The notes under the pieces were generated by a model. It searched no databases. It saw only the letters and a program-made list of their open reading frames with translations, and had not been told where the DNA came from. Shown here in pieces: positions 1,570 through 56,860 of a stretch of 64,000 bases of DNA. The DNA comes from Candidatus Latescibacterota bacterium (GTDB lineage: Bacteria > Latescibacterota > UBA2968). The position numbers and the translations under genes are program-made. Where the stretch lies: positions 640,001 through 704,000 of the forward strand of contig OZ240241.1 of the NCBI GenBank assembly GCA_965198115.1, in the 5' to 3' direction. Position 1 is the stretch's first letter; the number at the start of each line of letters is the position of its first letter.

Positions 1570-1646
1570 CGGGGCGTGGCTCAGCCCGGTAGAGCGCCTG
1601 CTTCGGGAGCAGGAGGCCGAAGGTTCAAATCCTTTCGCCCCGACCA
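1570..1646 (+). tRNA. tRNA-Pro (anticodon CGG)
   Basis: 77-nt cloverleaf: acceptor CGGGGCG/CGCCCCG, D arm GCTC/GAGC, anticodon stem CCTGC/GCAGG with loop TTCGGGA, T loop TTCAAAT, encoded CCA. Confidence 0.97.
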
Positions 1647-1647
1647 A
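1601..1647 (+). repeat. attL core (47 bp, tRNA 3' half)
   Basis: CTTCGGGAGCAGGAGGCCGAAGGTTCAAATCCTTTCGCCCCGACCAA is identical to 44422-44468. Confidence 0.95.
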
Positions 1648-8437: not shown

Positions 8438-8494
8438 AGGTGGACGGCGGGCGTCACCGTTTCCAAACATAGTCAAGAGGACGTCGGAGCAAAG

Positions 8495-37174: not shown

Positions 37175-40100
37175 ATGGCACTGGGGTTTGTGAAAAAGCT
37201 GGGACTGGCCCTGGGCGTGGGCGCCGTCACCGTCTTCACGGGGGGACTAGGGGGCTTGGCGCTCAGTCAGGCCCTCAAAGCCGGAGCGATCAACGCGGGG
37301 CTGACCCTCCTGGACCGCCTGGTGCGGCGCGGTCCCAAGCCTCCCGAGCCTACGCAGCGCGGCGTCAACGCCGTGGCTGCCGCGCCGGCGCGCTACGCCC
37401 TCGGCACCTCACGCACAGAAGGCGTCCTCACCTATCTTCGAGAAAACGGCGCCGACCTCCACCTGGTCTACGCCATCTCCGAGGGCGCGTGCGCAGGCCT
37501 CGCCGGAGAGAAAAAGCCCGACGGGACGACCGAAGACGTCCACATCTACGTCGACGGCAACCAGATACGAATCAAGCCTGTCGTCGGCTCTCCCAACAAG
37601 TACGAGCCCTTCCACGCCACCAACCGGGGCACGATAGAGCTGTGGGCCTACACCGCAGCTGACGGCACGGAGGGCGCCGACCTCTTCTCCGCGATTCCCG
37701 GTCCCAACCCTCCCTCCGCGCCTTGGCTCGATGGCCTCTCGTGGGTCTACGTCAAGCTCACCCAGCCCAAGCGACGCCACTACACCGCCGTCCCGAGGAT
37801 CGAGTTCGAGTGGCGCGGGATGATCGTCAAGGCACCCCGCCACCGCCCGCTGCTTGAACGACAAATCACCGGCACGGCCTGGTCGAACGCGGAGGCGAAC
37901 CTTGCGTCACCCTCGGCCACGCCTGAGTCCCGGGCTTTCGGGATCAAGGTCCGCCTCCACAACGACGCCGACCCATCGTTGTTCGACGAAACGCGCATCT
38001 GGGACGGCGACGCCTGGGTTCGGCTCGACTCCGACACCGGCGACCTCCCCGAAGGAGAATGGACGTCCTCGGCGGCAGCTGCGCGCTACTTTTTCCTGAC
38101 CAGGCTGCGCGGCGTACCCCACACCGCCATAGACCGAAACTCAGTGGTCGAAGCCGACCGCATCTGTTCAGAACGCAGCTACGCCGTCAACGGCGTCATC
38201 GCCGACGACGAGGACGTGAACGAAATCGAAGACTTGTTCGACTTCGCCTGGCAGGGACAGGTCATAGACGCAGGAGGTGTCCTCCTCTTCCGCCCGGGAG
38301 CGGACAGGGACCCCGTTCTCACCCTCGACGTGGACGACGAAGCCGTGTCCATAGACGCCGTAAAACCCGCGCCTTCCCTCTCCGAGCGCGTCAACGAGCT
38401 CACCCTAACCCTAGACCAGTCCGACGCCCATCAGTTCAGGCCGATGGCCATGCCCCCCGTGGTCGACAGGGAGACGCAAGGCCGGGACGGACGGCGCCTG
38501 GCCAAAGATCTTGGAAACATCAGGTTCGTGACACACGCCCCCACAGCAAACCGTCTGATGGCCATCGCCCTGAAAAGGGCGCGCGCAAACACCCGCTTCG
38601 CCTACACCCTGCCTCCAGGAGATGACTACCGCTGGCTCACCGTCAGGCCCACGGACCGCATGCGCATCAACGACAGCGAAAACGGACTGTCCGCCTTCCT
38701 TGCCGAGGTCCTCACCCTCACCGTCAACGAAGACTGGTCCGTCAGCATCGAACTACAAGCCGCACCCGACGGTATCTACGACGACGACGCGACGTTCCCG
38801 CCCCTCATACCCCTGGATATCGACATCGCTGACCCTACCGACGTCGCGATCCCCACAGGCGTCACGGCCGCGGCTTTAATCGAGAAGATCGCCGACGGAA
38901 CATTCATTGCAGGATTCACCATCGGGTGGGGCGACACGACCACCACGAGCACCGACCTCCGCTATCGTAAGGTCGGAGACACACAGTGGATTTTTCTAAA
39001 CAGCCCCGCGTCCCCCATTCGCGTGGCACCCCTGCCCGCAGGCGACTATGAATTCCAACTGCGCCACGTTTCCAGGCAAAACATCCCCTCGATCTGGACC
39101 GACGCCGCCACAGTCACCGTAGCAGGAGACCAGATACCGCCGGCGAACCCCCTGAACTTCGCCGTCTCCGCGATCGCAGGGGGATACCAGGCCACCTGGA
39201 CAGCATCCCCCGACACCGACTACCACCATACCGAAGTCTACGACACCCGCACGCGAACGGCGTTCGCCGACGCCACACTACGCGCCACCATCGACGGCTC
39301 GTCCTACTCCCGCCACGGCCTCACCACTGACACCCTTGACGTCTGGATCAGACACATCGACACCTGGGGAAACGCCTCGGGAGAAGCCTCGGCCACCGTC
39401 ACACCCAGCGCGCAAGGACAGGGAAGGCCCGGCCTCGACGGAACGCCCGGCCTCTCCGTCGCCGAGCTCATAATATTCCGCAAAGCCACGCTCCAGGAAG
39501 GTATAGCCTCGCTCACAGGAACAACGCCGGTGGCAACACCCACGGCCACGAACTACGATTTCGCCACGGGCACTTTTACCGGCCTCACGACCGAGTGGTC
39601 GCTACAGTGGCCCGCGAATTACGACCAGCGACTGGGGTTTGTCTTTGCCTCTACAGTCACCGCCACGGCACCGGCCGGAGGAGCCGACACGTCATTGACT
39701 TTTGGGGGACCGCGCCTCGTCAGCAGTGCCCTGAATATCGATGTCATCTACACACGGGCGGCCACGCCACCCTCAAAACCGGCCAACCAGCCCGCCGACA
39801 GGAACCCGGCAGACTACCCCGCACCCGACACCGGATGGTCCACGAACCCGCCCACGGGCGACGACCCCCTCTACTCGTGTGTCCGTATTATCCGGGGGAC
39901 TCAGTGGGTCCATGGCACACCTATTCCGGTGGGCGAGGACGGCAGGTCGGCGCAGGAGTATTTCAGAGCCACCCTCCTGAACAGCCCACCGTCCACGCCG
40001 ACAGGATGGAATGCTCAAGATGGTGCACCAACGGACTGGACCACCGCGGCGGGGATACCTAGGATTCGCCCGGCGATCCCAATGCCTGGGAATCCGCTGG

Positions 40101-41131
40101 TGCTTTGGCGGATTTCGAGAACGTGGAACGAAGGCACAGATCAATGGAATGACTTCACCCCACCGGTGCTTTTTGACGGCGTCCCAGGCGCTGATGGGGC
40201 TCCGGGCGCAGACTCCACAGTTCCAGGCCCTATCGGCCCACAGGGCGCAGACTCCACAGTTCCAGGCCCTATGGGCAGGTCGGCGCAGGAGTATTTCCGA
40301 ATCACTCGCCTGAACGACCCACCGCCAAAGCCGACAGGACGGAATGCTCAAGATGGTTCACCACCGGACTGGACCACCGCGGCGGGGCTACCTCTCATTC
40401 GCCCGGTCCCGATTCCCGGGAATCCGCTGGTGCTTTGGCGGATTTCGAGAACGTGGAACGAAGGCACAGATCAATGGAATGACTTCACCCCACCGGTGCT
40501 TTTTGACGGCGTCCCAGGCGCTGATGGTGAGGGTGTGCCCGGAGGCGGCACGCTGGGGCAGGTGTTGACGAAGATCGCCGCGGGCGACTTCCAGACCGGC
40601 TGGCAGGATACCTCGGGCGTCAGCACTCAGGGTCCCACAGGTGCTCAGGGTGCTCAGGGTCCTCAAGGCGGGCAGGGAGCTGATTCTACCGTCCCCGGAC
40701 CTCAGGGCCCCCGAGGTGCTCGGGGGGCGAAAGGAGATCAGGGTAATCCGGGAGCTCGGGGTGCGAAAGGAGATCAGGGTAATCCGGGAGCTCGGGGTGG
40801 AAAAGGAGATCAGGGTAATCCAGGTGCTCAGGGAGCGAAAGGAGATCAGGGTAATCCGGGAGCTCAGGGGGCAAAAGGAGATCAGGGTAATCCGGGAGCT
40901 CAGGGGGCAAAAGGAGATCAGGGTAATCCGGGAGCTCGGGGCACTCAAGGTCAGCGGGGCTTTCGGGGCATAACGGGTGCTGCGGGTGCTGCGGGTGCTC
41001 GGGGTGCGCAGGGTGCTCAAGGGGCTCAGGGACCCAGCCATAGCCATGGTACCATTCTTAGCCGTCTCTCCAGTCTCGAAAACGAAGTGGACGATCACGA
41101 CGAGCGTATTAATGACTTGGAATCTGCCTAA
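37175..41131 (+). CDS. Tail tip/host-specificity protein with FN3-like domains, duplicated ~85-aa module, collagen helix and C-terminal coiled coil
   Basis: 1318 aa; tail-hub-like N-terminus, FN3-like repeats (YEFQLRHVS, VWIRHIDTWGN.S), Gly-X-Y runs, terminal heptads LSRLSSLENEVDDHDERINDLE. Confidence 0.9.
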   Translation: MALGFVKKLGLALGVGAVTVFTGGLGGLALSQALKAGAINAGLTLLDRLVRRGPKPPEPTQRGVNAVAAAPARYALGTSRTEGVLTYLRENGADLHLVYAISEGACAGLAGEKKPDGTTEDVHIYVDGNQIRIKPVVGSPNKYEPFHATNRGTIELWAYTAADGTEGADLFSAIPGPNPPSAPWLDGLSWVYVKLTQPKRRHYTAVPRIEFEWRGMIVKAPRHRPLLERQITGTAWSNAEANLASPSATPESRAFGIKVRLHNDADPSLFDETRIWDGDAWVRLDSDTGDLPEGEWTSSAAAARYFFLTRLRGVPHTAIDRNSVVEADRICSERSYAVNGVIADDEDVNEIEDLFDFAWQGQVIDAGGVLLFRPGADRDPVLTLDVDDEAVSIDAVKPAPSLSERVNELTLTLDQSDAHQFRPMAMPPVVDRETQGRDGRRLAKDLGNIRFVTHAPTANRLMAIALKRARANTRFAYTLPPGDDYRWLTVRPTDRMRINDSENGLSAFLAEVLTLTVNEDWSVSIELQAAPDGIYDDDATFPPLIPLDIDIADPTDVAIPTGVTAAALIEKIADGTFIAGFTIGWGDTTTTSTDLRYRKVGDTQWIFLNSPASPIRVAPLPAGDYEFQLRHVSRQNIPSIWTDAATVTVAGDQIPPANPLNFAVSAIAGGYQATWTASPDTDYHHTEVYDTRTRTAFADATLRATIDGSSYSRHGLTTDTLDVWIRHIDTWGNASGEASATVTPSAQGQGRPGLDGTPGLSVAELIIFRKATLQEGIASLTGTTPVATPTATNYDFATGTFTGLTTEWSLQWPANYDQRLGFVFASTVTATAPAGGADTSLTFGGPRLVSSALNIDVIYTRAATPPSKPANQPADRNPADYPAPDTGWSTNPPTGDDPLYSCVRIIRGTQWVHGTPIPVGEDGRSAQEYFRATLLNSPPSTPTGWNAQDGAPTDWTTAAGIPRIRPAIPMPGNPLVLWRISRTWNEGTDQWNDFTPPVLFDGVPGADGAPGADSTVPGPIGPQGADSTVPGPMGRSAQEYFRITRLNDPPPKPTGRNAQDGSPPDWTTAAGLPLIRPVPIPGNPLVLWRISRTWNEGTDQWNDFTPPVLFDGVPGADGEGVPGGGTLGQVLTKIAAGDFQTGWQDTSGVSTQGPTGAQGAQGPQGGQGADSTVPGPQGPRGARGAKGDQGNPGARGAKGDQGNPGARGGKGDQGNPGAQGAKGDQGNPGAQGAKGDQGNPGAQGAKGDQGNPGARGTQGQRGFRGITGAAGAAGARGAQGAQGAQGPSHSHGTILSRLSSLENEVDDHDERINDLESA
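39941..40527 (+). repeat. Intragenic direct repeat, 39941-40197 and 40274-40527
   Basis: Both encode GRSAQEYFR...FDGVPGADG; the last 110 bp are identical. Confidence 0.95.
40715..40930 (+). repeat. Six 36-bp tandem repeats encoding GA[RQ]G[AG]KGDQGNP
   Basis: Invariant core AAAGGAGATCAGGGTAATCC every 36 bp, within 38 uninterrupted Gly-X-Y triplets (40697-41038). Confidence 0.95.
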
Positions 41132-41725
41132 GTGATTGACGAAATTCGCATAATCGACCGTGTATATTTGGATCCCGATAGCGTCAGGGAATACGCCCTG
41201 GCACAGCCCTTCGAGAGCCAGGGCAATTTTCCCGGATACCGCACGGCACCGGCATCTGCCGCCGATCGGGAATTGCTAAAGACCACGCTTGAAGCCTGGC
41301 TCACCCAAACCATCACCCACTGGCCTCAGAAGGAGAACACCTGCTACCAGCTATGCCTGGAAGGCGATCAGACGTGGGTGCACCACGACAAGACCGAGTG
41401 GGCGGGCGTCCTGTTTCTGACGCCGGACGACGTCGCCCGAAGAGCCGAAGAGGAGCACGGTCAGCGCCACGGCATCGGATTCTACCGAAAACGCGGCACG
41501 GAGAATTCAGCAGCGTCCGACTGGATATACGACGGCGAAGGGACAGTAGACTGGAACCAAGACAGCGCCCCAGAGGACTGGGAGACCATCGTCGAGGTCA
41601 GCGGACTCTACAACCGCCTCGTTGCCTTCCGCGCTGGCTACTACCATCGGTCTCTTCTCCCCGGATTCGGAGACGCTCCGGAAACCGGACGCCTTACGCA
41701 GGTGTTTTTTTGGAACGTCTCGTGA
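41132..41725 (+). CDS. 2OG-Fe(II) oxygenase-like protein (DUF6445-like)
   Basis: IID..Y.DPD.VREYAL...FPGYRT...WVHHD..WAGVLFLTP...YNRLV.F....YH....FG.....GRLTQVFF: HxD...H iron triad plus a 2OG-binding Arg. Confidence 0.82.
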   Translation: MIDEIRIIDRVYLDPDSVREYALAQPFESQGNFPGYRTAPASAADRELLKTTLEAWLTQTITHWPQKENTCYQLCLEGDQTWVHHDKTEWAGVLFLTPDDVARRAEEEHGQRHGIGFYRKRGTENSAASDWIYDGEGTVDWNQDSAPEDWETIVEVSGLYNRLVAFRAGYYHRSLLPGFGDAPETGRLTQVFFWNVS

Positions 41726-42774
41726 CCCGCGTCCTCCTCACCATCTTAACGCACCACGACCTGCCCCGCCTCGAGCGCGCCGTCACCTCGGCAAAGCGGC
41801 AGCGCAGAGCCCGAAGCATCGCCGTGGAAAGCCTCGTCGTCGTAAACACCCTCGACGGCCGTTACGAGAAGGCAGTGCGCGAGACGTGCGCGAGGTGGGG
41901 CGTCAAGGCGCTGGCCACCGACAGCAACGGCAAGCCCGGGCGCGGAAAGAATGCGTGCCTCGATGCGTTCCTGTCTTCCGATGCGGACTACCTGTACCAG
42001 CTCGATGGCGACGATTTCCTCTACCCCACGTGGGCGCGATCTGTCGAAGCCCACCTGCGCCGCATACCGGGCCTTGATGCCCTCGGCATCGTCCCTCTCG
42101 ACTGCGTAGGATCAAGCGAAGGATTTTCGTGGACCCTGCCCGACGGATCCACTAAAGCCGGCGTGTGGACGGCTTCCGACGTCTATCCCTGGGAAGGAGC
42201 TGGGCCCGGACGGTCGCCTCTCTGGGACGTGTCCCTGTCGGCCTCACCCGACATGGTGCGCCTCGTCAGCCGGGAGACCGCCCTGACCTGGTGCTACGAC
42301 GAGGACCTGGCTGTAGGCGAGGACCACCTGATGTCCCTCAGGCTGCTCGCAAGCCACATACAGGGCGATCTGCACTACTGGGTGACAATGGCCTCGGACC
42401 AGATGGTCGTCGATCGTACGACGCCACAGAGCGTGCAGGACCAATATCCCCAGGCGGAAGAGGTGGGGAGGCTGCGCGATCTCGCAAGGCAAGCGGTTTA
42501 TCCTGAGCGCTCGGCGCACACCGAGCTGCCGATCCTCTACCCTGAGATCTTGATCGGGCCCGACGAAAAGAGAGCATGGATCGACCGATACTTTATTTCC
42601 AACCAGGAGGATACCAATGTCGGCAGAAACGGTGATGAGCGGGAATTTCAGAATTCGGAGGATCGTCGAGTCGGACAGGTACGAAGGCACGACGGTGACG
42701 ATGATGTCCACGGAAACACCGCCGGCCCTGGAGGTGGGCAGGGTATACGCCCTCACCTTCACGCCGGTGCCTGA
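41722..42774 (+). CDS. GT-A fold glycosyltransferase (GT2-like)
   Basis: GTGA overlap; L.RAV.S...VVVN...SNG.PG.GKN...DYLYQLDGDDFLYP (DxD), later GEDH. The last ~50 codons may be spurious. Confidence 0.82.
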   Translation: MTRVLLTILTHHDLPRLERAVTSAKRQRRARSIAVESLVVVNTLDGRYEKAVRETCARWGVKALATDSNGKPGRGKNACLDAFLSSDADYLYQLDGDDFLYPTWARSVEAHLRRIPGLDALGIVPLDCVGSSEGFSWTLPDGSTKAGVWTASDVYPWEGAGPGRSPLWDVSLSASPDMVRLVSRETALTWCYDEDLAVGEDHLMSLRLLASHIQGDLHYWVTMASDQMVVDRTTPQSVQDQYPQAEEVGRLRDLARQAVYPERSAHTELPILYPEILIGPDEKRAWIDRYFISNQEDTNVGRNGDEREFQNSEDRRVGQVRRHDGDDDVHGNTAGPGGGQGIRPHLHAGA

Positions 42775-42811
42775 CGCAAATCAGGGCGCGGGACAGGACC
42801 AGGGAACGTAG
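42617..42811 (+). CDS. 64-aa hypothetical protein
   Basis: AGGAGG RBS; LEVGRVYALTFTP; overlaps the end of the glycosyltransferase frame. Confidence 0.6.
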   Translation: MSAETVMSGNFRIRRIVESDRYEGTTVTMMSTETPPALEVGRVYALTFTPVPDANQGAGQDQGT

Positions 42812-42963
42812 GTTGGGGGGCTTTCAAGATCGTGGCTGCTGATCCGGTTGAGCGTTATCTTGGACCACCAAAAAACAGCCACGATCACCTGCACAGATAG
42901 CGTGCGAGCGTGTGCGCACGGACGCTTGCGACGGCGGGCGCCGCAGGAGAAGAGTGCGAGACG

Positions 42964-43983
42964 ATGATAACGGAAGACGATCTGGTGCGCTTTCAGTGCT
43001 TGCGTGACGAGCTGGAGACGTCGAGGGAGCTCCTCAAGTCGGGATTCGGACACCTCCAGGAAATAGACATGGGGAACACGTTCTACCACCTGCCGCATCA
43101 ACTGCTGGCGAGCGGTTTCGAACGCTTGATGAAGTGCTACATCGCCGTTGTTCGCAAGGGCCGTGACGGGGCCTACCCCGACAGGGCGGCGATGAAGTCG
43201 CTCGGGCACGACCTAGAGAGCCTGCTAGAGACGATCTGCACGAAGTACTACGGCGGAACGCAACGAGACCTGGTGCAACAGGATCTCGCGTTCATCAGGA
43301 CGGATCCCGTGCTGAACGATTGCGTGAGAATCCTATCCCTGTTCGGGAAGATGGGCCGTTACTACAACCTCGACGTTGTGGCGGGGGCGGGCCACGGGCC
43401 AATGGACCCCGAGGGCAAGTGGAAGGCGCTGGAGTCCCGTGTGGAGGACCCGATTCCGTATCTTGGCAATCAGGAGCGGCTGCACCGCGACTACTACCCG
43501 CGAGTGAACAGTGGGTTGATTGCCAGGATGGAGCGGCTGGTCCGGGCGATCGCCATGCAGTTCACGCTTGGGGGGCACCCCGGAGGTGAACTCAGACTGC
43601 TCTCAGTCGTGTACCAGGAGTTCTGGAACCTCCCGGACGACCAATTCGGCAATGTCGAGTATCGCCGTTCGGTGGAGATCCTCAGGGGCGACACCGACCA
43701 GTGGATCAGGCGCTCCGACCAGGAGATCGCGGCATCGGGCTGGCCGTCGCTTGCAGTCAGCAAGGCAGAGTTCGGTGACGAGTGGCCGTTTCGCGACGAC
43801 CGGGTGACCGTCGAGCGCCGGGAGGGTCTGTTCTACATCGTCAACATCGGCGGTTACGACTTCGCGCTCAACGGTGCGGCACGGAGCCGGTTCGAGTTGC
43901 CATCTGTGCACGACGCGGGCGTGGCGGTGCTGGGGAAGTCGGTGGGGCCGTTCATTGAGATGGCACACGGACTGTCGGCGTGA
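42964..43983 (+). CDS. Hypothetical protein with HEPN-like N-terminal domain (accessory gene)
   Basis: LASGFERLMK...GHDL..L...GRYYNLD pattern; 339 aa. Confidence 0.6.
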   Translation: MITEDDLVRFQCLRDELETSRELLKSGFGHLQEIDMGNTFYHLPHQLLASGFERLMKCYIAVVRKGRDGAYPDRAAMKSLGHDLESLLETICTKYYGGTQRDLVQQDLAFIRTDPVLNDCVRILSLFGKMGRYYNLDVVAGAGHGPMDPEGKWKALESRVEDPIPYLGNQERLHRDYYPRVNSGLIARMERLVRAIAMQFTLGGHPGGELRLLSVVYQEFWNLPDDQFGNVEYRRSVEILRGDTDQWIRRSDQEIAASGWPSLAVSKAEFGDEWPFRDDRVTVERREGLFYIVNIGGYDFALNGAARSRFELPSVHDAGVAVLGKSVGPFIEMAHGLSA

Positions 43984-44421: not shown

Positions 44422-44468
44422 CTTCGGGAGCAGGAGGCCGAAGGTTCAAATCCTTTCGCCCCGACCAA
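44422..44468 (+). repeat. attR core (47 bp)
   Basis: Identical to 1601-1647. Confidence 0.95.
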
Positions 44469-46093: not shown

Positions 46094-47467
46094 GAGTTCA
46101 GGTCAATAGGTGTGTAAAAGAAATCAGGCGGCCATCTTCCCGGCTTCGACCTGCGGTCCGGTTGAGTGTTTCTGATCGTAGACTTGTTGTAGCAAGTGTG
46201 GCGCGGTGAGTTTCCTGAATCGGCTCTCTGCGACCTTGAGCGTACGCCAGATGAGAGTCGTGGCGTTCCTGACTTTCTTGAATCGCCTGGCGGCGTTTGT
46301 GCGAAGCCGAACGGAAGCAAAGGGGCTCTCGACGACGTTCGTGGTTCTCAGGTGTTTCCAGTGTTCCTTCGGGAAGTCGTAGAACGTGACCATCCGATCC
46401 CAGTCTCTTTCGAGCGTCTCCACGGCGGCAGGGAACTGTGAGCGATACCGTGCGGCAAAGCGTTTCCGGAGCTTCTCGGCCTCCTTTTTCGTGCCGGCAT
46501 AGGGGATCTGGACGAGCAGTGCGCGGGCTTCAGCCTGTGCACGCTTGGCGACCTTGTCGAGCACGTTGAGGATCTTGTGGTTCCAGCACCGTTGTTGCCG
46601 GCTCTCTGGCCAGACCTGATCAACGGCCGCCCAGATGCCCATATTCCCGTCCGCGGCGATCAGGACAGGATGTTCGAGCCCGCGATCCCGGAGATCCCGT
46701 AGCACCGTGAGCCAGGATTCTGTAGACTCTCGATAACCGGGTTCTATCGGCAGGATCTCCTTGCTGCCGTCGCTCATCGCGCCGATCACGACCAGCAGAC
46801 ACGCCTTCTCGCGCTCGAGCCCGGCTTTGACGTAGATGCCATCAGCCCAGGCGTAGACCAGTTCGCGATTATCCAGACGCCTTTCTTTCCAGTCCTGGAA
46901 GTCGACCTCCCACTTCCCTCGAAGACGAGCGATCGAGGTCGGCGAAAGCGGCGCGCCATCACCGAGCAGCGCACGCAAAGACAACTCGAAGTCGCCCTGG
47001 GAGAGACCGTGGAGATAAAGGTCGGGAAGCAGATCTCCAATGGCCCTGGTTCTCCGGGCGAACAGGGGGAGGATGCGGCTTTCAAACCGCTCTTCCAGAC
47101 CACGAACCCGGGGACGCCGGACCTTGATCGTTCCGCAGCTCGTCGAGAGACGCCGGGGCTTGCCGTAGCCGTTCCTGTAGCCCGTGGAGCTATCGACCTC
47201 GGCTCGGCGCTCATACCACGACCGGCCCAAGAACGCGGTCGCCTCCTCCTCCAGAATGGACTGGAACCGGCCCTGGATCTCTTCACGGATCCAATCGTCA
47301 ACCGTCTCCCACGTCGGCATGGACTTCAATGGGGCTCTATGCGTATGTTCCTTCACGGCGATCCTCCTTCCCAACCGGGCCTCTCACCCGGTTTTGTGTG
47401 AATCAACTATCTCACGGGAAGGGTAGGGTCGCCCTTTCTCTTTTTCCACACCTTTTGATTATAGCTC
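46094..47467 (-). mobile_element. IS256-family element type A, copy 1 (1374 bp)
   Basis: 8-bp DR CATCGGGC at 46086-46093 and 47468-47475; near-identical to 61665-63038. Confidence 0.93.
46124..47374 (-). CDS. IS256-family transposase
   Basis: YRNGY, WADGIY, ADG, QRCWNHK, RTTNVVES. Confidence 0.95.
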   Translation of the reverse strand: MGRRIAVKEHTHRAPLKSMPTWETVDDWIREEIQGRFQSILEEEATAFLGRSWYERRAEVDSSTGYRNGYGKPRRLSTSCGTIKVRRPRVRGLEERFESRILPLFARRTRAIGDLLPDLYLHGLSQGDFELSLRALLGDGAPLSPTSIARLRGKWEVDFQDWKERRLDNRELVYAWADGIYVKAGLEREKACLLVVIGAMSDGSKEILPIEPGYRESTESWLTVLRDLRDRGLEHPVLIAADGNMGIWAAVDQVWPESRQQRCWNHKILNVLDKVAKRAQAEARALLVQIPYAGTKKEAEKLRKRFAARYRSQFPAAVETLERDWDRMVTFYDFPKEHWKHLRTTNVVESPFASVRLRTNAARRFKKVRNATTLIWRTLKVAESRFRKLTAPHLLQQVYDQKHSTGPQVEAGKMAA

Positions 47468-47485
47468 CATCGGGCTCCGTGGTAT

Positions 47486-48730
47486 TCATGCTCTCTGCCG
47501 AGCATCTTGATTGTCGCCGAGATTCAGGTTGTTTTTCAGTGCTTGCCTGAGCAGCGGGTGTTTGTATCCGCTCACGCGTCGCAGGCGTGGTTCGATGTCG
47601 AGGAGTGCGGCCGCGACCCATCTGTGTCGCTGAGGAGAGTTGTTCCAGCGGTTGACCTTCCGTATCAGGTTGCCGGTCATGCTGTTGAGCGCCTCGATGC
47701 AATTGGTGGTTCGGAAGCTTCGCTTCAAGAACGGGAGCATCCCCAGCCGGTGGAGGGTCAGGGTTTCCTCCAGTCCTTCCTCGAGGCTTGCCACGGCAGA
47801 CTGATTCATCAGCTTGAGTTCGGGTTTGAGTGATTCGAGTGCGGCCTTTGCCTCCTCGTAGGTGTCGCAGTCATAGGCTTTCTGAAGTTTCCGTCGAACT
47901 CTTGGACGTTCTGCCTCCGGGAGGTAGCTGACGACGTTCTCGCGCTTGTGCCACTGACAGCGATGCACGCACACATCCCCTTTGAGGGCTTTGGTGACGG
48001 CACTGCGGAGTCCCTTTGAGCCGTCCAGCACAACGAGAAGGCCCTGGTCGTAGCACAGGCCTCTCCGGATGAGATCCTGGATCAGCTGACGGCAGATCCG
48101 TTCGTTCTCCGTCGCCGATTCGACGAAGCCCAGGGGGATCTTCTGGCCGTCCGTCGTGACGCCCGGAGCGATCACGATCTCTTCGTCGGCAAAGCTCTTT
48201 CCGTCGATGAACAGGGCGACCAAGTCGTAGTCGTCGAGCGGTCGTTCCTGGAACTGCTTCAGCTTCTTTGCGGTGGCTTTGATGAACCGTCGCGAGACGG
48301 AGGATGCCGAAATTCCGAACGCTTCGGGTACCGACTCTGCATAGGCTCTGTAGTTGCGACAGGAGATTCCCTTGAGCACACGAAGCAGCAGCTTCTCATC
48401 CATCGCTCTGGGCCTCTGCATCCCCCGGTATGCGGCCAGAGAAACCTCCGTATCGGACTCGACGTCGCGCACACGGGGAACGGCCACCGGCAGCTTCTGG
48501 TCCATCAGATACACGGACCCTTTCTGGCTTCCCCATCGACGATGCGACTGCTCTGAACCCTTACGCGCATACCGAACGCCTGCGAGCTGCTCCACCTCCT
48601 GCTGGAGCACGTCGGCAACGGCCTCCAGACCCAGCGGAATCAGCGCCCGGATCACCGATAAACGCGTCTCCAAATCCATAACGTCTGACCCAACCTTGAC
48701 TTCGCCATCCCCTGCAAATAGCTTCTCCAT
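47486..48730 (-). CDS. IS256-family transposase
   Basis: PRVRD, FIDG, LDGSKGL, RCQWHKRENV, TTNCIE. Confidence 0.93.
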   Translation of the reverse strand: MEKLFAGDGEVKVGSDVMDLETRLSVIRALIPLGLEAVADVLQQEVEQLAGVRYARKGSEQSHRRWGSQKGSVYLMDQKLPVAVPRVRDVESDTEVSLAAYRGMQRPRAMDEKLLLRVLKGISCRNYRAYAESVPEAFGISASSVSRRFIKATAKKLKQFQERPLDDYDLVALFIDGKSFADEEIVIAPGVTTDGQKIPLGFVESATENERICRQLIQDLIRRGLCYDQGLLVVLDGSKGLRSAVTKALKGDVCVHRCQWHKRENVVSYLPEAERPRVRRKLQKAYDCDTYEEAKAALESLKPELKLMNQSAVASLEEGLEETLTLHRLGMLPFLKRSFRTTNCIEALNSMTGNLIRKVNRWNNSPQRHRWVAAALLDIEPRLRRVSGYKHPLLRQALKNNLNLGDNQDARQRA

Positions 48731-49752
48731 CGTGGGCTCCTTTCTTACGGGTACACGCTCTCACACGTCTACCCACAACGTAAGTTTTGAGCCCTTTAAG
48801 TTTCAACTAGGATAGGGACCTCACCGCCTATATCGAACTTGCTAAGCAGATCCATAGTTCCCACCTATCGCAGGGCGCCGTGGACATTCCGAATATCCTG
48901 ACGCTGTTGAAATCAGGAAAGGGACCGGACCCATCGGCTATACGCGAGTTAGGTCAGATAGCACAAGCCTGGTTGCGAAGTGCTGGGGAGTTGCAGGGGG
49001 GGTCAACGCACATGTTGGTGACATTCGTGCTCTCTTCGATCCCTTCTCCTGGCTGATGGGGGAGAGGCTGCTGAATCTCACCACCGATAAGACTATGGAA
49101 GCTTTCGAGGAGGAGTATGCCACCCTGACCGATGAGGACGCTGCAGACACCTACACCCGCCAGGCGATGGCTGCTTCCCGAGTGGCAAATCGGAAAATCG
49201 TAAACAAGCGGGGTAGGGAAAGGCGGCAAGGAACTCATGGCGTTCGCTTTAACTGGAACGTCTACGATCCCGCTGTCCACCCGACCACCCTACCCGGATA
49301 CCTGCGGGAGAGACTGCCCTCATTACTCGACGACAGGCTGGCGCAGCAAGCTCCCCGTAAAGAGGGAACCGGGAAGCTCAACGTCAGCCTCGACGTCCAA
49401 GCTGAGAACTCGGAGGGTGGAGCCCACAGCTCGCCTGACCTTTCACGAAAGACCCTTCCCGACGATGCCGTTGAGCTTCTTGATTCCTGTCTTGAGGAAT
49501 TTTTCGAGGAAGCCAGGGTCTCTGAGAGGGATTCGAGGATACTGCGGATGCGCCACATCGACCGTCAGACTTACTCTGACATTGCCTGCGAGGTCGGCCT
49601 CAGCGACAGGCATATTAAACGAATTGTGAAGAAGTTCGACAGCTTTGAGCCGTGGCTGAAGGATCGGTTGTCCCGGCGCGGCGAATAGCGCACTTCTGCA
49701 CGAACCACTCAGAAAAACCGGGGGTCATCCTTATTGGATGTCCCTCTTTTTT

Positions 49753-51171
49753 GGCTCTATCCGGGTTTCTCAACGGTGAAACTATAGAATGACAAGGTCA
49801 TAGATCGTTCCCTACGCTTGGTTGTGTGTGTAGGACAATCAAAGCGAAGGGGGTGCGACCTATGACCGGGAGCAGATTACTATCGAAACTGCTGAGATTC
49901 AAGGGGTTCCGTGTTGTCAGCTGGTGGTTTGAGGGGAGAAGCTGTTTCGTCATCGCCGTAAAGCCACATAAGAATGGTTGTTGTTGTCCGGAGTGCGGCC
50001 GTCGAGGTAAAATCGTCCGCACAATGCCCCATCCGCGTCGGTGGCGTGACATTCCGGTGTGCGGGTGGAGGGTCTGGCTTCTCTACCATCCTCGGGAGAT
50101 TCGGTGTCCTACCCACGGTCGTGTGGTCGAGGAGATTCCGTGGGCGGAGCGGTTCTCTCGGGTGACGTATCGCTTCGAGTATGCCATGCTGCGCTACTGC
50201 CAGACCATGACGCAGAAGGCGGCGTCCGAGTTACTGCGCATCTCTGCCTCGACGCTGTCGGATCTCCTTCACCGATCCATCACGCGGCTTCGTGAAGGTC
50301 ATCGTATCCGAGGGCTCAAAACCATCGGGATCGACGAGATCTCCTACGCCAAGCGTCACAGGTACGCCACGCTCGTTTACGATCTGGACCGCTCCTGCGT
50401 GGTGTGGGTTGGCCGCGGCAGGGCGCGTAAAACGATCGATCGGTTCTTCACAGAGGCTCTCAGTCCCTACCGGAGATCCAAGATCGAGTGGGCCTGCTGC
50501 GACATGAGCGAAGCTTACATCGGAGCCATCCAGGAACACTGTCCGAATGCCAAGCTGGTCCTCGATCGCTTTCACATCGTCAAGGCTCTCAATGCCGCCG
50601 TTGACGAGGTCCGTAAGGACCAGTGGCGTAAAGCTGCCCCGGATGAGCGCAAAGCCATGAAGGGCCTCCGAGGCTCCTCTACCGGCACTCAGCGACACGC
50701 TCCGGAGGGGATACTCGGACACTCAAAGCACTGGAGGAGGCGAACTACCGAATCTATAGAGCCTGGAGACTCAAGGACGAGTTCGAGCAGTTCTGGGAAT
50801 ACAAAGCGCCCTGGGCTGCCGAACGCTTCCTGAAATGCTGGACGACGTCCGCACTCAGAAGTCGACTTGAACCCCTGCGAAAGTTCGTCAGGACCCTGCG
50901 ACAGCACTTCTTCGGCGTCCTCGCATTCGTGAACACGCGTCTTACCAACGCCATCGCCGAAGGCCTCAACCGAATCGTCCAAATCGTCAAGAACCGAGCC
51001 AGCGGATTCCGCACACTCGACGCATTCAACGATATGATCTTCCTTACCGTCGGAGACATAAACATCCCTGAGCAGATTCCGAAGAGGTTCCGCACACTCT
51101 AACCGCGCCCCCATGCCAGGAACCACGGCACCTTCACCCACTTCATCTCGTTGAGAGATCCGGATATAGCC
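49753..51171 (+). mobile_element. ISL3-family element copy A (1419 bp; transposase frameshifted near 50670)
   Basis: Ends GGCTCTATCCGG / CCGGATATAGCC, flanked by CTTTTTT; one T missing relative to copies B and C (CGAGGCTCC vs CGATGGCTCC). Confidence 0.93.
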
Positions 51172-51412
51172 CTTTTTTAGGCCTCGTGATTGTGCACCGA
51201 TGACACACGTGTTTCAGACTCGCCATAGACAACAGCGGCGCACGACTTCCTTCCTCCACCGGGTACCCAGGGCTGTCGCTCTGGGCTATGGGATGCCGCC
51301 CTTTGTTGAAACCTTCAACCTTCTGCGACCTCTGAGCTCCCTGCGGTAAGAGCTTTTCGTCTTTGCTCGTCCTCACTGCGGTCCTAAATTGTTCGCAATC
51401 AGGTCTTTAAAG

Positions 51413-52832
51413 GGCTATATCCGGATCTCTCAACGAGATGAAGTGGGTGAAGGTGCCGTGGTTCCTGGCATGGGGGCGCGGTTAGAGTGTGCGGAACCTC
51501 TTCGGAATCTGCTCAGGGATGTTTATGTCTCCGACGGTAAGGAAGATCATATCGTTGAATGCGTCGAGTGTGCGGAATCCGCTGGCTCGGTTCTTGACGA
51601 TTTGGACGATTCGGTTGAGGCCTTCGGCGATGGCGTTGGTAAGACGCGTGTTCACGAATGCGAGGACGCCGAAGAAGTGCTGTCGCAGGGTCCTGACGAA
51701 CTTTCGCAGGGGTTCAAGTCGACTTCTGAGTGCGGACGTCGTCCAGCATTTCAGGAAGCGTTCGGCAGCCCAGGGCGCTTTGTATTCCCAGAACTGCTCG
51801 AACTCGTCCTTGAGTCTCCAGGCTCTATAGATTCGGTAGTTCGCCTTCTCCAGTGCTTTGAGTGTCCGAGTATCCCCTCTGGAGCGTGTCGCTGAGTGCC
51901 GGTAGAGGAGCCATCGGAGGCCCTTCATGGCTTTGCGCTCATCCGGGGCAGCTTTACGCCACTGGTCCTTACGGACCTCGTCAACGGCGGCATTGAGAGC
52001 CTTGACGATGTGAAAGCGATCGAGGACCAGCTTGGCATTCGGACAGTGTTCCTGGATGGCTCCGATGTAAGCTTCGCTCATGTCGCAGCAGGCCCACTCG
52101 ATCTTGGATCTCCGGTAGGGACTGAGAGCCTCTGTGAAGAACCGATCGATCGTTTTACGCGCCCTGCCGCGGCCAACCCACACCACGCAGGAGCGGTCCA
52201 GATCGTAAACGAGCGTGGCGTACCTGTGACGCTTGGCGTAGGAGATCTCGTCGATCCCGATGGTTTTGAGCCCTCGGATACGATGACCTTCACGAAGCCG
52301 CGTGATGGATCGGTGAAGGAGATCCGACAGCGTCGAGGCAGAGATGCGCAGTAACTCGGACGCCGCCTTCTGCGTCATGGTCTGGCAGTAGCGCAGCATG
52401 GCATACTCGAAGCGATACGTCACCCGAGAGAACCGCTCCGCCCACGGAATCTCCTCGACCACACGACCGTGGGTAGGACACCGAATCTCCCGAGGATGGT
52501 AGAGAAGCCAGACCCTCCACCCGCACACCGGAATGTCACGCCACCGACGCGGATGGGGCATTGTGCGGACGATTTTACCTCGACGGCCGCACTCCGGACA
52601 ACAACAACCATTCTTATGTGGCTTTACGGCGATGACGAAGCAGCTTCTCCCCTCAAACCACCAGCTGACAACACGGAACCCCTTGAATCTCAGCAGTTTC
52701 GATAGTAATCTGCTCCCGGTCATAGGTCGCACCCCCTTCGCTTTGATTGTCCTACACACACAACCAAGCGTAGGGAACGATCTATGACCTTGTCATTCTA
52801 TAGTTTCACCGTTGAGAAACCCGGATAGAGCC
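51413..52832 (-). mobile_element. ISL3-family element copy B (1420 bp)
   Basis: Same ends; 8-bp DR CTTTAAAG at 51405-51412 and 52833-52840. Confidence 0.95.
51482..52759 (-). CDS. ISL3-family transposase
   Basis: CPECG zinc finger, IGIDE, CDM, DRFH, TNAIAEGLN. Confidence 0.95.
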   Translation of the reverse strand: MCRTIKAKGVRPMTGSRLLSKLLRFKGFRVVSWWFEGRSCFVIAVKPHKNGCCCPECGRRGKIVRTMPHPRRWRDIPVCGWRVWLLYHPREIRCPTHGRVVEEIPWAERFSRVTYRFEYAMLRYCQTMTQKAASELLRISASTLSDLLHRSITRLREGHRIRGLKTIGIDEISYAKRHRYATLVYDLDRSCVVWVGRGRARKTIDRFFTEALSPYRRSKIEWACCDMSEAYIGAIQEHCPNAKLVLDRFHIVKALNAAVDEVRKDQWRKAAPDERKAMKGLRWLLYRHSATRSRGDTRTLKALEKANYRIYRAWRLKDEFEQFWEYKAPWAAERFLKCWTTSALRSRLEPLRKFVRTLRQHFFGVLAFVNTRLTNAIAEGLNRIVQIVKNRASGFRTLDAFNDMIFLTVGDINIPEQIPKRFRTL

Positions 52833-52867
52833 CTTTAAAGGCACCGCTGGACCTAGGGAGGAGATCC

Positions 52868-55717
52868 ATGCGAGTTCTCACGTTCTTCGCTTCCCTTCTG
52901 CTCGTTACGAATGCGTTCGCCCAATCCAAGGGCACCATCATCGGCCGTGTCGTCGACGACGCCGGGGAACCTCTGCCCGGTGCGAATGTCGTCGTCGAAG
53001 GGACCACTCTCCAGGCGCCCGCGGGCGACGTCACAAACGACCAGGGCCACTACGAAGTCAGAGGCCTTGGGCACGGGAAATATCGCGTCACCGTTTCCTT
53101 CATCGGTTTTAAGACCGTTTCCCGCTCTGTCCAGTTGACTTCCGAGCAGTTGGCCTTCGATGTCACACTTCAAGCCGATCTGCTTGAACACGATCAGCTG
53201 ATCCTCTCGGCATCGCGCTCCCAGCAAAAAGCGCTCGACGCACCGGCCTCTGTTTCTGTCATCACCGGCGACGAAGTCAACAGCACACCCGCCCTCAACG
53301 TGGCGGAGAACATCCGTTCCCAGCCGGGTGTCGACTTTGTCAAAACGGGTCTGGTCCAGAACAACGTCGTTGCTCGAGGATTCAACAACGTCTTCTCCGG
53401 CGCCTTCCTCACACTGATGGACAACCGGATCGCGCGCGTTCCATCCCTCCGCATCAACGTCAACAATTTCATTCCCGTCACCAACCAGGACGTGGAACAG
53501 ATCGAAATCGTTCGCGGTCCGGGTTCGGCGCTCTACGGGCCGAACAGCGCAAACGGAGTCCTTCACATCATCACAAAGTCACCCATCGGTTCCGAGGGAA
53601 CGACGATCGGCGCGGGCGGTGGCGAGCGCAGCCTCAGGAATTTCTCGTTTCGACACGCCTCGTCCACGAACGGCAAGATCGGAATCAAAGCGTCCGGCCA
53701 ATACTACGCCGGCAATGACTGGGAATACGTCGACTCCGTCGAGGTTGCAGATCGAGGGCGCAACCCAAGAGAGGGCAACTACGATCTCGAAAGATTCTCG
53801 GGCGAAGTACGAATGGATCTGCGCCCAAATGAAGCGACGGAAATTATTCTGTCTACCGGTCTGAGCCAGGCGAAGGTCCTTGAAATGACCGGTCTGGGAG
53901 CCGCCCACGCGGACAACTGGCGCTACGCGTTCGGGCAGGCCAGAGTTCGATATCGGGATTGGTTCGCCCAGGTCTTCTACAACCGAAGTGACGCGGGCGA
54001 CAACACCCGCCTCCTCCGAACCGATGATCCGATCGCCGACAAATCCACGCTCCTCGTCTTCCAGCTACAACACCGAGCTTACCTGGGCAATCGACAATCC
54101 TTCACATATGGCGGGGACGTCCTGCGGACGCGTCCGAAAACAGAGGGAACAATCAGCGGACGTCACGAAGACAGGGACGACGTGAATGAGTTCGGAGTCT
54201 ACGTCCAAAGCGAAACAGCCATCAACGAATACATCGATCTCGTCCTCGCCGGCCGCTACGATGACCACAATCACGTTAAAGACGGAGTCTTCTCACCACG
54301 TGCGGCCGTCGTGCTCAAGCCACAGGAAGACCAGACGCTTCGGGCAACCTACAACAGGGCCTTCAGCACACCCACGAGCAACAACCTGTTCCTCGACGTC
54401 AGGAACCGCATCGATGTAGGCGGTATCGGGGCACGGTTCGAGCCTACGCTCGGCTACAGTCCGGCTATCGATATCCGTGTCCTCGGGCTGCTGGACGGAT
54501 TCACGTTCAACCGGGACGCCACCGGGTTGCCGACCTACAGGTCACCCTACGAGCTGGCTGCGTCCGCGAGTAGCATCCCTGTCGGCGGTCCCATCCAGCT
54601 GCACGACCCCGTCTTCACGAACTTCGAATGGGGAGTAGCGCGGGGGGCGGTTCTTGCCGGGTTCTCCGGGCAGTTCCGTCCTGTGCTGATCGGAGGCTTG
54701 CTGCAACAGGGCCTGCCGCAGGATCTTGCAACCGCGCAGGCCGACGGGATTCTGACCGCCTTCGCGTCGATCGTGCCAACACAGATTGCGGGACTTCAGA
54801 ACAGCCTTCGTGTCCTGAATTCCGAGACCGAAGCATTCGATGCCATCCCGATCACCGGAAACGCCGTCACCGACATCACCAGTATTGACCCAACGATTAC
54901 CGAAACCTTCGAACTTGGCTATAAGGGCGTGGTGAACAACAACCTGATCCTCAGCCTCGACGTCTATCGAACGAAAACCACCGACTTCGTGGGGCCGCTC
55001 CGCATCGAGACCCCGAACGTATTCCTCGATCCGGGACCCCTCCAGACTTCTCTCGGAACAGCTTTCGCGACCGCCCTCGCCGACCCTGCCAACGCACAGC
55101 TCGCGCAGGCATTGGCCCCGCTCGATGCTCCGGAATTCGGCGGCAATGGCGACGGCTCCATCGTAGGCGAGCTCGTGACGACCTTCGTCAGCCAGGCGGC
55201 AGCCATACCATTCGGAACGGTCACGCCGGAACAGGCCGAAGATCCGTCGGCCATCACGGTCACGTATCGAAACTTCGGCCGGACCACTCACTGGGGCCTC
55301 GATGCCGCTTTCGCCTATTACGCATCAAACGGCTGGCGAGTCGAAGGGAACTACTCCTACGTGAGCGACGACCTCTTCGAGAATCTCGACAACATCGCCG
55401 ATATCGCTCTCAACGCACCCAAGAATAAATTCAACATCGGGATCGGGTATGACCACGCGCGATCTGGCTTCTCCTTCACCGGACATCTTCGATATCGCGA
55501 CGGGTTCCCCATGGACTCCGGCGTGTATGTCGGAACCGTCGAATCCTCTGCGAGTGTCGACGCGACCGTACAGTACAAACTACCCATCACCGATCCCAGA
55601 TTCGGTGCGACGCTGACCGTCAACGCCTCGAACCTCCTCGACGAGAAACACCAGGAATTCATCGGGGCACCGGAGATCGGGCGTCTGATCAGCTCCGGCG
55701 TGATCATCAACTTCTGA
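52868..55717 (+). CDS. TonB-dependent outer-membrane receptor
   Basis: Signal peptide, carboxypeptidase-regulatory-like domain (G.V.D..GEPLPGANV), plug IEIVRGPGSALYG.N..NGV, FSPR, NLLD, terminal Phe. Confidence 0.95.
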   Translation: MRVLTFFASLLLVTNAFAQSKGTIIGRVVDDAGEPLPGANVVVEGTTLQAPAGDVTNDQGHYEVRGLGHGKYRVTVSFIGFKTVSRSVQLTSEQLAFDVTLQADLLEHDQLILSASRSQQKALDAPASVSVITGDEVNSTPALNVAENIRSQPGVDFVKTGLVQNNVVARGFNNVFSGAFLTLMDNRIARVPSLRINVNNFIPVTNQDVEQIEIVRGPGSALYGPNSANGVLHIITKSPIGSEGTTIGAGGGERSLRNFSFRHASSTNGKIGIKASGQYYAGNDWEYVDSVEVADRGRNPREGNYDLERFSGEVRMDLRPNEATEIILSTGLSQAKVLEMTGLGAAHADNWRYAFGQARVRYRDWFAQVFYNRSDAGDNTRLLRTDDPIADKSTLLVFQLQHRAYLGNRQSFTYGGDVLRTRPKTEGTISGRHEDRDDVNEFGVYVQSETAINEYIDLVLAGRYDDHNHVKDGVFSPRAAVVLKPQEDQTLRATYNRAFSTPTSNNLFLDVRNRIDVGGIGARFEPTLGYSPAIDIRVLGLLDGFTFNRDATGLPTYRSPYELAASASSIPVGGPIQLHDPVFTNFEWGVARGAVLAGFSGQFRPVLIGGLLQQGLPQDLATAQADGILTAFASIVPTQIAGLQNSLRVLNSETEAFDAIPITGNAVTDITSIDPTITETFELGYKGVVNNNLILSLDVYRTKTTDFVGPLRIETPNVFLDPGPLQTSLGTAFATALADPANAQLAQALAPLDAPEFGGNGDGSIVGELVTTFVSQAAAIPFGTVTPEQAEDPSAITVTYRNFGRTTHWGLDAAFAYYASNGWRVEGNYSYVSDDLFENLDNIADIALNAPKNKFNIGIGYDHARSGFSFTGHLRYRDGFPMDSGVYVGTVESSASVDATVQYKLPITDPRFGATLTVNASNLLDEKHQEFIGAPEIGRLISSGVIINF

Positions 55718-55831
55718 AGCCATTGAACTGCCAACGTCTGTCCGTACGGCTCGACCATCGGCCGGTTGGCGCAATCGAGCGCGCCTCGTTCGACGCTGAG
55801 GATCCGGCAAGCAACACGAGAATCCACACAG

Positions 55832-56083
55832 ATGCCTGATCCCACCTCCAGACGGAAGGTCCTGGGCCTTCTACGATTTCGCCAACTCGGCCTTCGCGAC
55901 CCTCGTCCTCACCTTCATCTACAGCGCTTACCTCATCAAAGCGATCGCAGAAAACGAAACGCTCGGAACGAGCCAATGGTCTTGAGCGGTCACCGTCTCT
56001 GCGCTGGTTATCGCCCTCGTTTCTCCCTTCCTCGGATCCGTCGCCGACCGCCGGGGGCTTCGGAAACCGCTGCTGCTCGCCTA
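55832..56083 (+). pseudogene. MFS transporter (Atg22/UMF1-like) 5' remnant
   Basis: WAFYDFANSAFATLV...SPFLGSVADRRGLRK with a frameshift, an internal TGA and truncation. Confidence 0.75.
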
Positions 56084-56086
56084 AAT

Positions 56087-56720
56087 ATGCAACATACCAT
56101 GATCGAGCACGCCGGCGATCCCGAGTACTCCCTGGTCACCCGCTCCAGCGACGGTCAGATGCTTTTCCTCGCCAACAAGCTCTCGAAGATGAAGCAGGAC
56201 ACGCCGCTCGGCAGCCGCATCGCCGAGGTGCACAACGGCAGCTCGCTGTTCACCGGCGATGCCGGCCAGGGCGAGAGCAACATCCGCCGCTGGATCATCG
56301 AGAACGACTGGCTGGAGGCGATCGTCGCCCTACCGCTCAACATGTTCTACAACACCGGCATCGCCACCTACATCTGGGTGCTCACCAACCGCAAGCCGAA
56401 GCATCGCCTGGATAAGGTGCAGTTGATCGACACCACGAAGTGGTACCGGCCGCTCCGCAAGAACCTGGGCAAGAAGAATTGCGAACTGGCCGAGGACGAC
56501 ATCGCCCGCATCTGCAACGCCTTCCTCGCCTTCGAGGAAACCGAGGAGAGCCGCATCCTCGACAACGCCGCGTTCGGCTACTGGAAGGTGGCGGTCGAAC
56601 GGCCGTTGCGCATCGAGGCCGCCGACCCGAACCGCGTCTACAAGGCGGCCGAGATCAAGGCGCTGAAGGAGACCGGCAAGCGCAGCGAGGATGCGCCGCC
56701 GGTCCTCCGGAAGATGCGCG
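56087..56720 (+). pseudogene. hsdM: Type I R-M methyltransferase internal fragment
   Basis: SDGQMLFL...GSSLFTGDAG.GES.IRRWIIEND.LEAI.ALP..MFYNTGI.TY.W; no N-terminal SAM-binding or NPPY part. Confidence 0.85.
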
Positions 56721-56860
56721 AAGGATGCTGCCGAGTGGCAGCCTGACACGAATCAGTGCTGGTTCGCGCAGACCGTCGTAGACGTGCGCCGAGCCTACCG
56801 GCTGACGATCGACCGGCGTGAGGCCGCCGCGCTCGATCGTATACTCGTCGGGTGTTCGGG
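56721..56860 (+). pseudogene. C-terminal fragment of a DUF1524-like HNH protein
   Basis: DAAEW.P..N.CWFA..VV.V...Y.LT.D..EA.AL..IL..C. Confidence 0.5.

Follow-up and report, generated by a model that had tools for sequence, protein, structure and literature searches.

A conserved unit of collagen fibre, DUF6445 oxygenase and GT2-like glycosyltransferase genes in a Latescibacterota prophage: a candidate system for modifying a phage's own collagen

In animals (PLOD/LH3 and COLGALT1) and in mimivirus (L230 and R699), an Fe(II)/2-oxoglutarate (2OG) hydroxylase and a glycosyltransferase (GT) of the GT-A type act sequentially on collagen, and mimivirus L230 is a virus-encoded enzyme that is both lysyl hydroxylase and glucosyltransferase (PMC9614988). 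Collagens of phages and of most bacteria are described as unmodified (PMC3368898, PMC8968730). We analyse here a 64,000-nucleotide stretch of DNA (the window) from a Candidatus Latescibacterota bacterium (GCA_965198115.1, contig OZ240241.1, positions 640,001 to 704,000 of the forward strand), in which a prophage carries genes for a collagen-bearing tail fibre, a DUF6445 oxygenase and a GT-A transferase. This three-gene unit is real and conserved. It is likely that the enzyme pair modifies the phage's own collagen fibre, because of the linkage of the genes across phages, their distribution over matched slots, the match between enzyme type and collagen composition, and the domain fusions of the transferase.

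The unit would appear to work like PLOD/COLGALT and L230 but, in our analysis, belongs to neither enzyme family. Structural alignment of the oxygenase with L230 gives 12% identity. The transferase, unlike the mimivirus and animal enzymes, is GT2-like and shows no similarity when compared with a phage GT25 domain (hhalign probability 0.1%). The linked collagens also differ from the mimivirus and animal ones in being Gln-rich and often Lys-free, and their carrier is a bacterial virus. Prokaryotic dioxygenases have been predicted to hydroxylate co-encoded collagen-like proteins before transfer of a second group (Iyer et al., 2010; PMC2938197). The hydroxylation-sulfation operons of that study, with collagen-like or tail-collar genes, involve other oxygenase families and sulfotransferases; the Syn9-gp52 family that it defined is matched by a T4-like homologue (locus L015) of the window oxygenase. 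Outside animals, glycosylation or a dedicated hydroxylase is known for collagen-like proteins in Bacillus anthracis (glycosylated BclA and a prolyl 4-hydroxylase, P4H) and in PBCV-1 (a prolyl hydroxylase) (PMC8968730), but the residue hydroxylated there is Pro, and neither DUF6445 nor a coupled three-gene unit is involved. Mycobacteriophage-encoded transferases glycosylate virion proteins (Freeman et al., 2023, cited in PMC12619734), but there the targets are the C-termini of capsid and tail-tube proteins, and the citing text mentions neither hydroxylase nor collagen. The literature searched, with most subscription journals outside it, contained no description of the trio, of glycosylation of hydroxyglutamine in proteins or of DUF6445; the supplements of PMC2938197 may list such neighbourhoods.

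The fibre gene (37175..41131, on the forward strand, as are all features of the unit) encodes a tail-tip or central tail fibre protein of 1318 residues, the likely substrate, which matches tail fibre families of PHROG, including phrog_5616 (E 1e-39) and phrog_31 (central tail fibre J), and the Pfam Collagen family (E 9e-13). Near its end are 38 uninterrupted Gly-X-Y triplets (40697..41038); nowhere else in the 8.4-Mb genome, in any of its six frames, do 12 or more follow one another. The 38 include six 12-residue units GA[RQ]G[AG]KGDQGNP (40715..40930), which hold every Lys and every Pro at Y, six of each. An earlier note made by a model from the letters alone (the sequence-only reading) had reported these triplets, units and counts, and re-reading the sequence bears them out; it had not remarked that Gln leads the count at Y (Gln 14, Arg 8, Lys 6, Pro 6, Ala 2, Thr 1, Ser 1). 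The last 30 residues (41039..41128) show the heptad pattern behind the short coiled coil noted in that reading; they contain two R-h-x-x-h-E motifs, which we take to have a role in trimer formation, and are predicted to form a trimerising coiled coil.

The oxygenase gene (41132..41725) starts on the base directly after the fibre stop codon, and the transferase gene (41722..42774) overlaps it by the four bases GTGA. Both junctions had been described before, together with an HxD...H...R signature and a DGDD motif, and these motifs are strongly conserved: all 62 classified homologue clusters keep H84-x-D86, H172 and R187 without change, and all 52 aligned transferases keep D95-G96-D97. The oxygenase belongs to the Fe(II)/2OG dioxygenase superfamily by its HxD...H iron triad, its basic 2OG-binding residue and its double-stranded beta-helix fold, and to the DUF6445 or Syn9-gp52-like family by its matches to PF20043 (34.7 bits against a curated cut-off of 24) and phrog_1644 (E 2e-20). 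DUF6445 was the only Pfam match at E values up to 1, with none to the P4H, 2OG-FeII_Oxy_3 or PLOD profiles, and a profile search of PDB sequences returned no P4H or PLOD. The structure closest to the predicted model (pLDDT, the predicted local distance difference test, 94) is PiuC, with Z 15.3 and a root-mean-square deviation (rmsd) of 2.3 over 146 aligned residues. The best 50 structural matches (Z 13.3-15.3, 10-14% identity) consist of PiuC, hydroxylases of the prolyl/lysyl type and one uncharacterised protein; among them are PHD2 (Z 14.4), an algal P4H (14.1), chlorovirus vCPH (13.7, PDB 5c5t), L230 (13.6), bacterial prolyl hydroxylases and OGFOD1. At the level of fold, the model falls in the same structural subgroup as P4H and PLOD, which would place the enzyme among the peptide hydroxylases, the substrate not being given by the fold. 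Loci L002, L119 and L167 have two or three DUF6445 paralogues, with neighbouring collagens in which Leu, Ile, Asp and Gln predominate; one clade of these paralogues has several conserved positions changed.

The transferase has a GT-A fold with a DxD motif in its folded part (about residues 1-297) and a predicted disordered tail of about 53 residues. Its closest structural matches are GT2 and GT27 enzymes (Z 15-17, rmsd about 3-4, more than 200 residues aligned). It scores 16.1 bits against Pfam Glycos_transf_2, for which the cut-off is 23.3, and most homologues carry a precomputed PF00535 label; with no match to PF01755 or PF25342, it lies outside the COLGALT/GT25 and PLOD-GT families. Among the families named in the sequence-only reading, DUF6445 and a GT-A/GT2-like fold were thus recovered, and P4H/PLOD sequence, TET/JBP and COLGALT profiles were not. 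A transferase profile search of 1.84 billion representatives gave 491 matches, and 37 longer ones among the 150 listed were scanned for fusions. One of these relatives (P0107) is fused to a lysyl-hydroxylase-like domain (LH3 E 2e-7, mimivirus L230 E 2e-7), three (P0131, P0142, P0185) to PLOD-GT domains (R699 E 1e-17), two (P0123, P0177) to other 2OG domains, and many to GT4/GT1-type, TPR or methyltransferase domains. Among 50,697 records of cultured phages there was one partial match to the transferase and none of full length, and single-protein scans of viral contigs with the transferase and the tail gene of the window returned no matches.

Linkage of the three genes was examined in homologues from viral contigs (the best 80 of 143 transferase matches and the best 80 of at least 569 oxygenase matches), nine genome loci and metagenomes (the best 80 of 318). 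Clustering at 90% identity gave 55 transferase clusters, of which 15 were too near a contig end and 40 were informative. Oxygenase and collagen both lie within 3 kb of the transferase in 21 of the 40, and neither does in 17; two have the oxygenase without a scored collagen, one of these (L218) with a 9-triplet repeat gene just upstream, and none has a collagen without the oxygenase. The sequence-only reading had held that its proposal would fall if such pairs were unlinked to collagen genes, and they are linked. The trio is found again in Acidobacteriota prophages, there with another tail protein (L155, L157, L158), in T4-like marine phages, where it has 200-400 triplets and is placed between genes of the baseplate wedge, and in further marine phages that differ in gene order and architecture, and the linked transferases fall into at least five lineages of a quick tree. 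Two other arrangements were seen: at one contig edge (L161:1-2068) the transferase, a P4H-like 2OG gene and DUF6445 come after a Gly-Pro-Pro repeat, and in T4-like phages (L138:18400-19293, and L018, L035, L046 and L059) a second fibre gene, about 8 kb downstream, has a distant transferase paralogue behind it.

Matched slots were defined by a neighbouring structural gene, an anchor independent of both collagen and enzyme, and were dereplicated at 95% anchor identity. The T4-like family gave 26 informative clusters out of 33, with the eight distant loci L334-L341 left out. Here the slot before gp8 holds an enzyme at all 12 collagen fibres and at none of the 14 non-collagen fibres. The corresponding counts in a second family (47 informative of 55 clusters) are 9 of 9 and 3 of 38, so that, pooled, a modifying enzyme accompanies 21/21 collagen fibres against 3/52 fibres with little or no collagen. 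Ten further slot genes that were scanned proved to be six tail assembly chaperones, one pectate-lyase-like gene and three 2OG oxygenases, the last being then counted; two more genes of the slot region had no match. Collagen and enzymes are also swapped as a unit between close relatives, as seen on comparing L355 with L363 (gp8 96.2% identical) and L388 with L389 (anchor 100%).

The type of enzyme follows the composition of the collagen. Collagens with 44-47% Lys at Y, in two marine phages (L402:7031-8920, L388:4097-5907), are accompanied by GT25, PLOD-GT and a 2OG hydroxylase domain, joined in L402 in a single protein of 630 residues; these enzymes are a bacterial-virus counterpart of mimivirus R699/L230 and animal LH3. 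Collagens with 30-47 Thr per 100 triplets have GT4, MptE/Maf-like or capsule-synthesis-like transferases and no oxygenase, the lowest value in this list of other transferases being that of the L388 row, which entered it through cluster merging. Those linked to DUF6445 in the matched families are rich in Gln (30-57% of Y) and mostly poor in Thr (6-31 per 100 triplets). Among the Thr-rich fibres, Gly-Asn-Thr-rich collagens in L404, L407 and L410 (about 7780-8935) are followed by a GT4-type transferase without an oxygenase, and T4-like fibres in L303:5640-6908, L307:3783-5129 and L363:1194-2564 stand beside an MptE/Maf-like domain fused to a methyltransferase. Glycosylation of the BclA type is on Thr, and the MptE/Maf-like fusions are candidates for direct Thr glycosylation with methylation of the glycan; a scan with the MptE/Maf-like enzyme as query returned itself alone. 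At L156:8191-14602, on a bacterial chromosome, two tandem copies of the transferase of the window's own family stand between two large genes with Gly-Ala-Ser/Thr repeats. No DUF6445 oxygenase was found in that genome, as expected if a native hydroxyl at Y replaces the oxygenase; the transferase family was found in 1 of 151 genomes of the family to which L156 belongs.

Composition also bears on the residue that would be modified. Y-Gln amounts to 40-69% in all of a hand-picked set of 26 collagens linked to oxygenase and transferase; for viral collagens a Y-Gln content of 13% has been tabulated (PMC3368898, Table 4). Y-Lys rounds to zero in 11 of the 26 and Y-Pro in 9, and both are at most 1% in 8. 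The repeats of L119 consist almost only of Gly, Leu, Asp, Ala, Gln, Ile and Val, and those of the cultured Synechococcus phage DSL-LC02 (L345) almost only of Gly, Thr, Ala and Gln. In the latter (OR032571.1, 44755-51199) the collagens face a transferase-like gene, an FkbM/radical-SAM fusion and a divergent DUF6445 gene annotated as an FkbM methyltransferase. Gln is the sole polar side chain that is abundant in the window, L119 and DSL-LC02 alike, and about half of the probability that we attach to the fibre as substrate goes to Gln as the hydroxylated residue. We propose, tentatively and with more doubt than confidence, that DUF6445 is a glutamine hydroxylase for Gly-X-Gln collagen and that the transferase family O-glycosylates the hydroxyglutamine. 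The Gln system would be one of the choices within a modular 'collagen code' of phages, by which Gln-, Lys- and Thr-rich fibres are exchanged together with matching enzyme sets. As a diagnostic marker Y-Gln was rejected, being common in unlinked collagens, and a Q-G-N/D sequon was dropped because it is marked in some loci and at background in others.

A sequential hydroxylation and glycosylation of the fibre on a residue other than Lys or Pro seems to us fairly probable, with less assurance than we have for fibre modification as such. The way in which the reading frames abut and overlap suggests joint production of the three proteins in late infection. The two enzymes would work in the cytoplasm while the chains are still unfolded and the C-terminal coiled coil has yet to nucleate the triple helix: the oxygenase would put a hydroxyl on a side chain within the Gly-X-Y repeats, with Gln at Y as the likeliest site, and the transferase would attach a host-made nucleotide sugar to it. 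The new hydroxyl would stand in for the Thr acceptor used by sister phages with other transferases, and the gain may be a stabler or shielded triple helix in a fibre poor in Pro and in charge. Marine phages have many 2OG-Fe(II) oxygenases, for which few substrates have been assigned, and the cassette names a concrete candidate for DUF6445 and for an unnamed transferase family. If the proposal is true, collagen hydroxylation-glycosylation extends to bacterial viruses and new side-chain chemistry may be added to it. The proposal is relevant, too, to the question of how triple helices poor in Pro keep their fold over as many as about 400 triplets, and the enzymes could serve to modify recombinant collagens in bacteria.

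Several observations weigh against this proposal. In the slot counts the enzymes were detected by queries drawn from the same loci, and the Fisher values (about 1e-7) overstate the association because kinship among the phages makes the samples non-independent. Most of the 17 unlinked transferase clusters form one clade of low-GC large phages without nearby collagen; the two longest records tested hold the oxygenase and Gln-rich collagens elsewhere, and in the two short fragments tested no oxygenase was found. Of the 36 informative clusters in which DUF6445 occurs without the transferase, 7 are near a collagen and 29 have none within 3 kb; the settings include a glycan cluster with sugar-nucleotide and transferase genes in S-SSM7, and islands with putatively halogenase-like genes. 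The sole DUF6445-transferase fusion (P0112) is a singleton without the last strand of the oxygenase, for which reason it is given little weight, and it may be a frameshift artefact. As to the residue, unlinked collagens of the host phylum have a median Y-Gln of 38% (29 loci) and reach 96% in genomes without either enzyme, many of them with Gly-Glu-Gln or Gly-Pro-Gln repeats (L254-L277); the enzymes were found in 2 of 168 genomes of the phylum. Y-Gln reaches 57% beside other transferases, and its modest excess in DUF6445-linked collagens has a p of 0.035 on non-independent samples. It is 12% in the linked collagen of L104, and the window's own clade has Arg, Lys and Pro at Y as well. Lastly, close variants of this prophage from two other studies (runs X3, X4 and X5) skip the six Lys/Pro units, the joint running from 40703 to 40952 with 31 letters on its short side and the upstream repeats outside coverage. 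In run X3 a single inserted base at codon 222 shifts the frame of the transferase, at about the point where protein P0001 diverges; such a frameshift would fit the loss of a Lys/Pro acceptor.

The X3 frameshift speaks for the animal form of the relay, implied by the sequence-only reading, in which Lys or Pro at Y is hydroxylated and the hydroxylysine then glycosylated. The six Lys and six Pro at Y in the window, an oxygenase fold within about 2 Z of P4H and L230, and the transferase relative fused to a lysyl-hydroxylase-like domain also agree with it. We nevertheless consider it unlikely, since the linked collagens include those nearly without either residue and Lys-rich phage collagens carry GT25/PLOD instead. 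Three DUF6445-linked loci with 10-17% Y-Pro (L081, L116, L104) have a separate P4H-like 2OG-FeII_Oxy_3 gene, which the window (14-16%) does not. The oxygenase of the X3 variant, moreover, is intact, with 16 synonymous and 9 non-synonymous codons among the listed sites, which argues against a need of this enzyme for the Lys/Pro block. Somewhat less improbable, though still doubtful, is decoration of the fibre or virion without a relay, the transferase acting on Ser/Thr or an amide and the oxygenase on Asn/Asp at X, on an aliphatic Y residue or on a sugar. The oxygenase does stand beside collagen without the transferase in L138, L354, L119 and L081, the transferase stands beside Ser/Thr repeats without the oxygenase in L156, and Asn at X is higher in linked collagens than in bacterial controls (median 10.5% against 0%). 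Yet none of the 21 clusters with a scored collagen has the transferase without the oxygenase. Asn at X was rejected as a specific target, the difference being lost against matched phage controls, where it is equally high beside GT4-type enzymes (p 0.97), and it is absent in L119, L158 and DSL-LC02. Aliphatic residues were rejected as well, their share of Y in the window being 0%.

The remaining explanations leave the fibre unmodified. The pair could be a moron for lysogenic conversion or superinfection exclusion that alters host surface glycans and merely lies in a variable tail region. Its position near attR, the teichoic-acid and polysaccharide GT2 enzymes TarP, TarS and RmlT as nearest transferase structures, and published readings of marine-phage transferases that favour O-chain modification (PMC7029224) are in line with this. 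It is nonetheless distinctly unlikely, because it leaves the slot pattern, the matching composition and the PLOD-domain fusions unexplained, and because the pair is coupled to a late structural gene and has, in T4-like phages, baseplate wedge genes on both sides. Oxygenases and transferases are also combined in the base J and glucosyl-hydroxymethylcytosine systems, and the sequence-only reading had offered hypermodification of phage DNA bases by such TET/JBP logic as an alternative. This idea found no support, and we regard it as the least credible of all: the 100%-complete host genome has no Tet_JBP (PF12851) match even at E 1 and no C5-methyltransferase (PF00145), control profiles being matched in 9 of 14. 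Four N6/N4-methyltransferase matches lie outside the prophage, in which the sequence-only reading had seen no intact methyltransferase. The top fold matches are mostly peptide hydroxylases, with TET and AlkB not among the best 50 listed, and the position and partner genes are structural; in a 2026 paper on glycosylated 5-hydroxycytosine the terms hydroxylase, 2OG and oxoglutarate do not occur (PMC13326640). Under a last alternative the collagen is unmodified and stabilised by Lys-Asp salt bridges, and the enzymes hitchhike. The E. coli prophage collagen EPclA is stable without hydroxylation or glycosylation (PMC3368898), and many bacterial collagens have no such enzymes nearby. This explanation is very unlikely here, as the matched slots and cassette swaps would go unexplained and charged pairs are scarce in most linked collagens. 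The core of the sequence-only reading, in which the pair acts on the collagen of its own phage, survives the linkage test and the comparison with the DNA route; its implied Lys/Pro chemistry is not supported by the composition.

The prophage that carries the unit is 42.8 kb long, with integrase, terminase, portal, capsid and tail genes, and is bounded by direct attachment (att) repeats of 47 bp from the 3' end of tRNA-Pro, attL (1601..1647, forward strand) and attR (44422..44468, forward strand); the unit lies near its right end. A contig of run X1 is identical to 40912-43034 (0 differences), and this run is possibly the source of the window itself. Reads of an RNA run did not cover the cassette, to which no weight is given. 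An open reading frame of 64 codons (42617..42811, forward strand) with a strong AGGAGG ribosome site overlaps the predicted disordered tail of the transferase and has no Pfam or PHROG family match; the similar tail of the relative P0002 suggests, from sequence, a conserved overlapped gene. The genome of the window (G000) also has a remnant of a related tail-tip gene (C1:111410-114330, reverse strand, 45-71% identity), which is uninformative because it is truncated and interrupted, as well as flanked, by insertion sequences. Two distant tail relatives in G147 (27-29% identity, weak support) have neither collagen nor oxygenase or transferase. Between the unit and attR lies a moron of 341 residues (42958-43983, forward strand) with a weak DUF2511/phrog_2950 match; its depth is far above that of the cassette in three DNA runs, and it is therefore probably multi-copy or widespread. 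Beyond the prophage, the window at 46124-63789 is dense in insertion sequences, several of them repeated, which break a gene near 57731-61328 that reads as restriction-like. Elsewhere in G000 (C1:2870558-2872531), 20 tRNA genes lie within about 2 kb, as is typical of a mobile element or large prophage.

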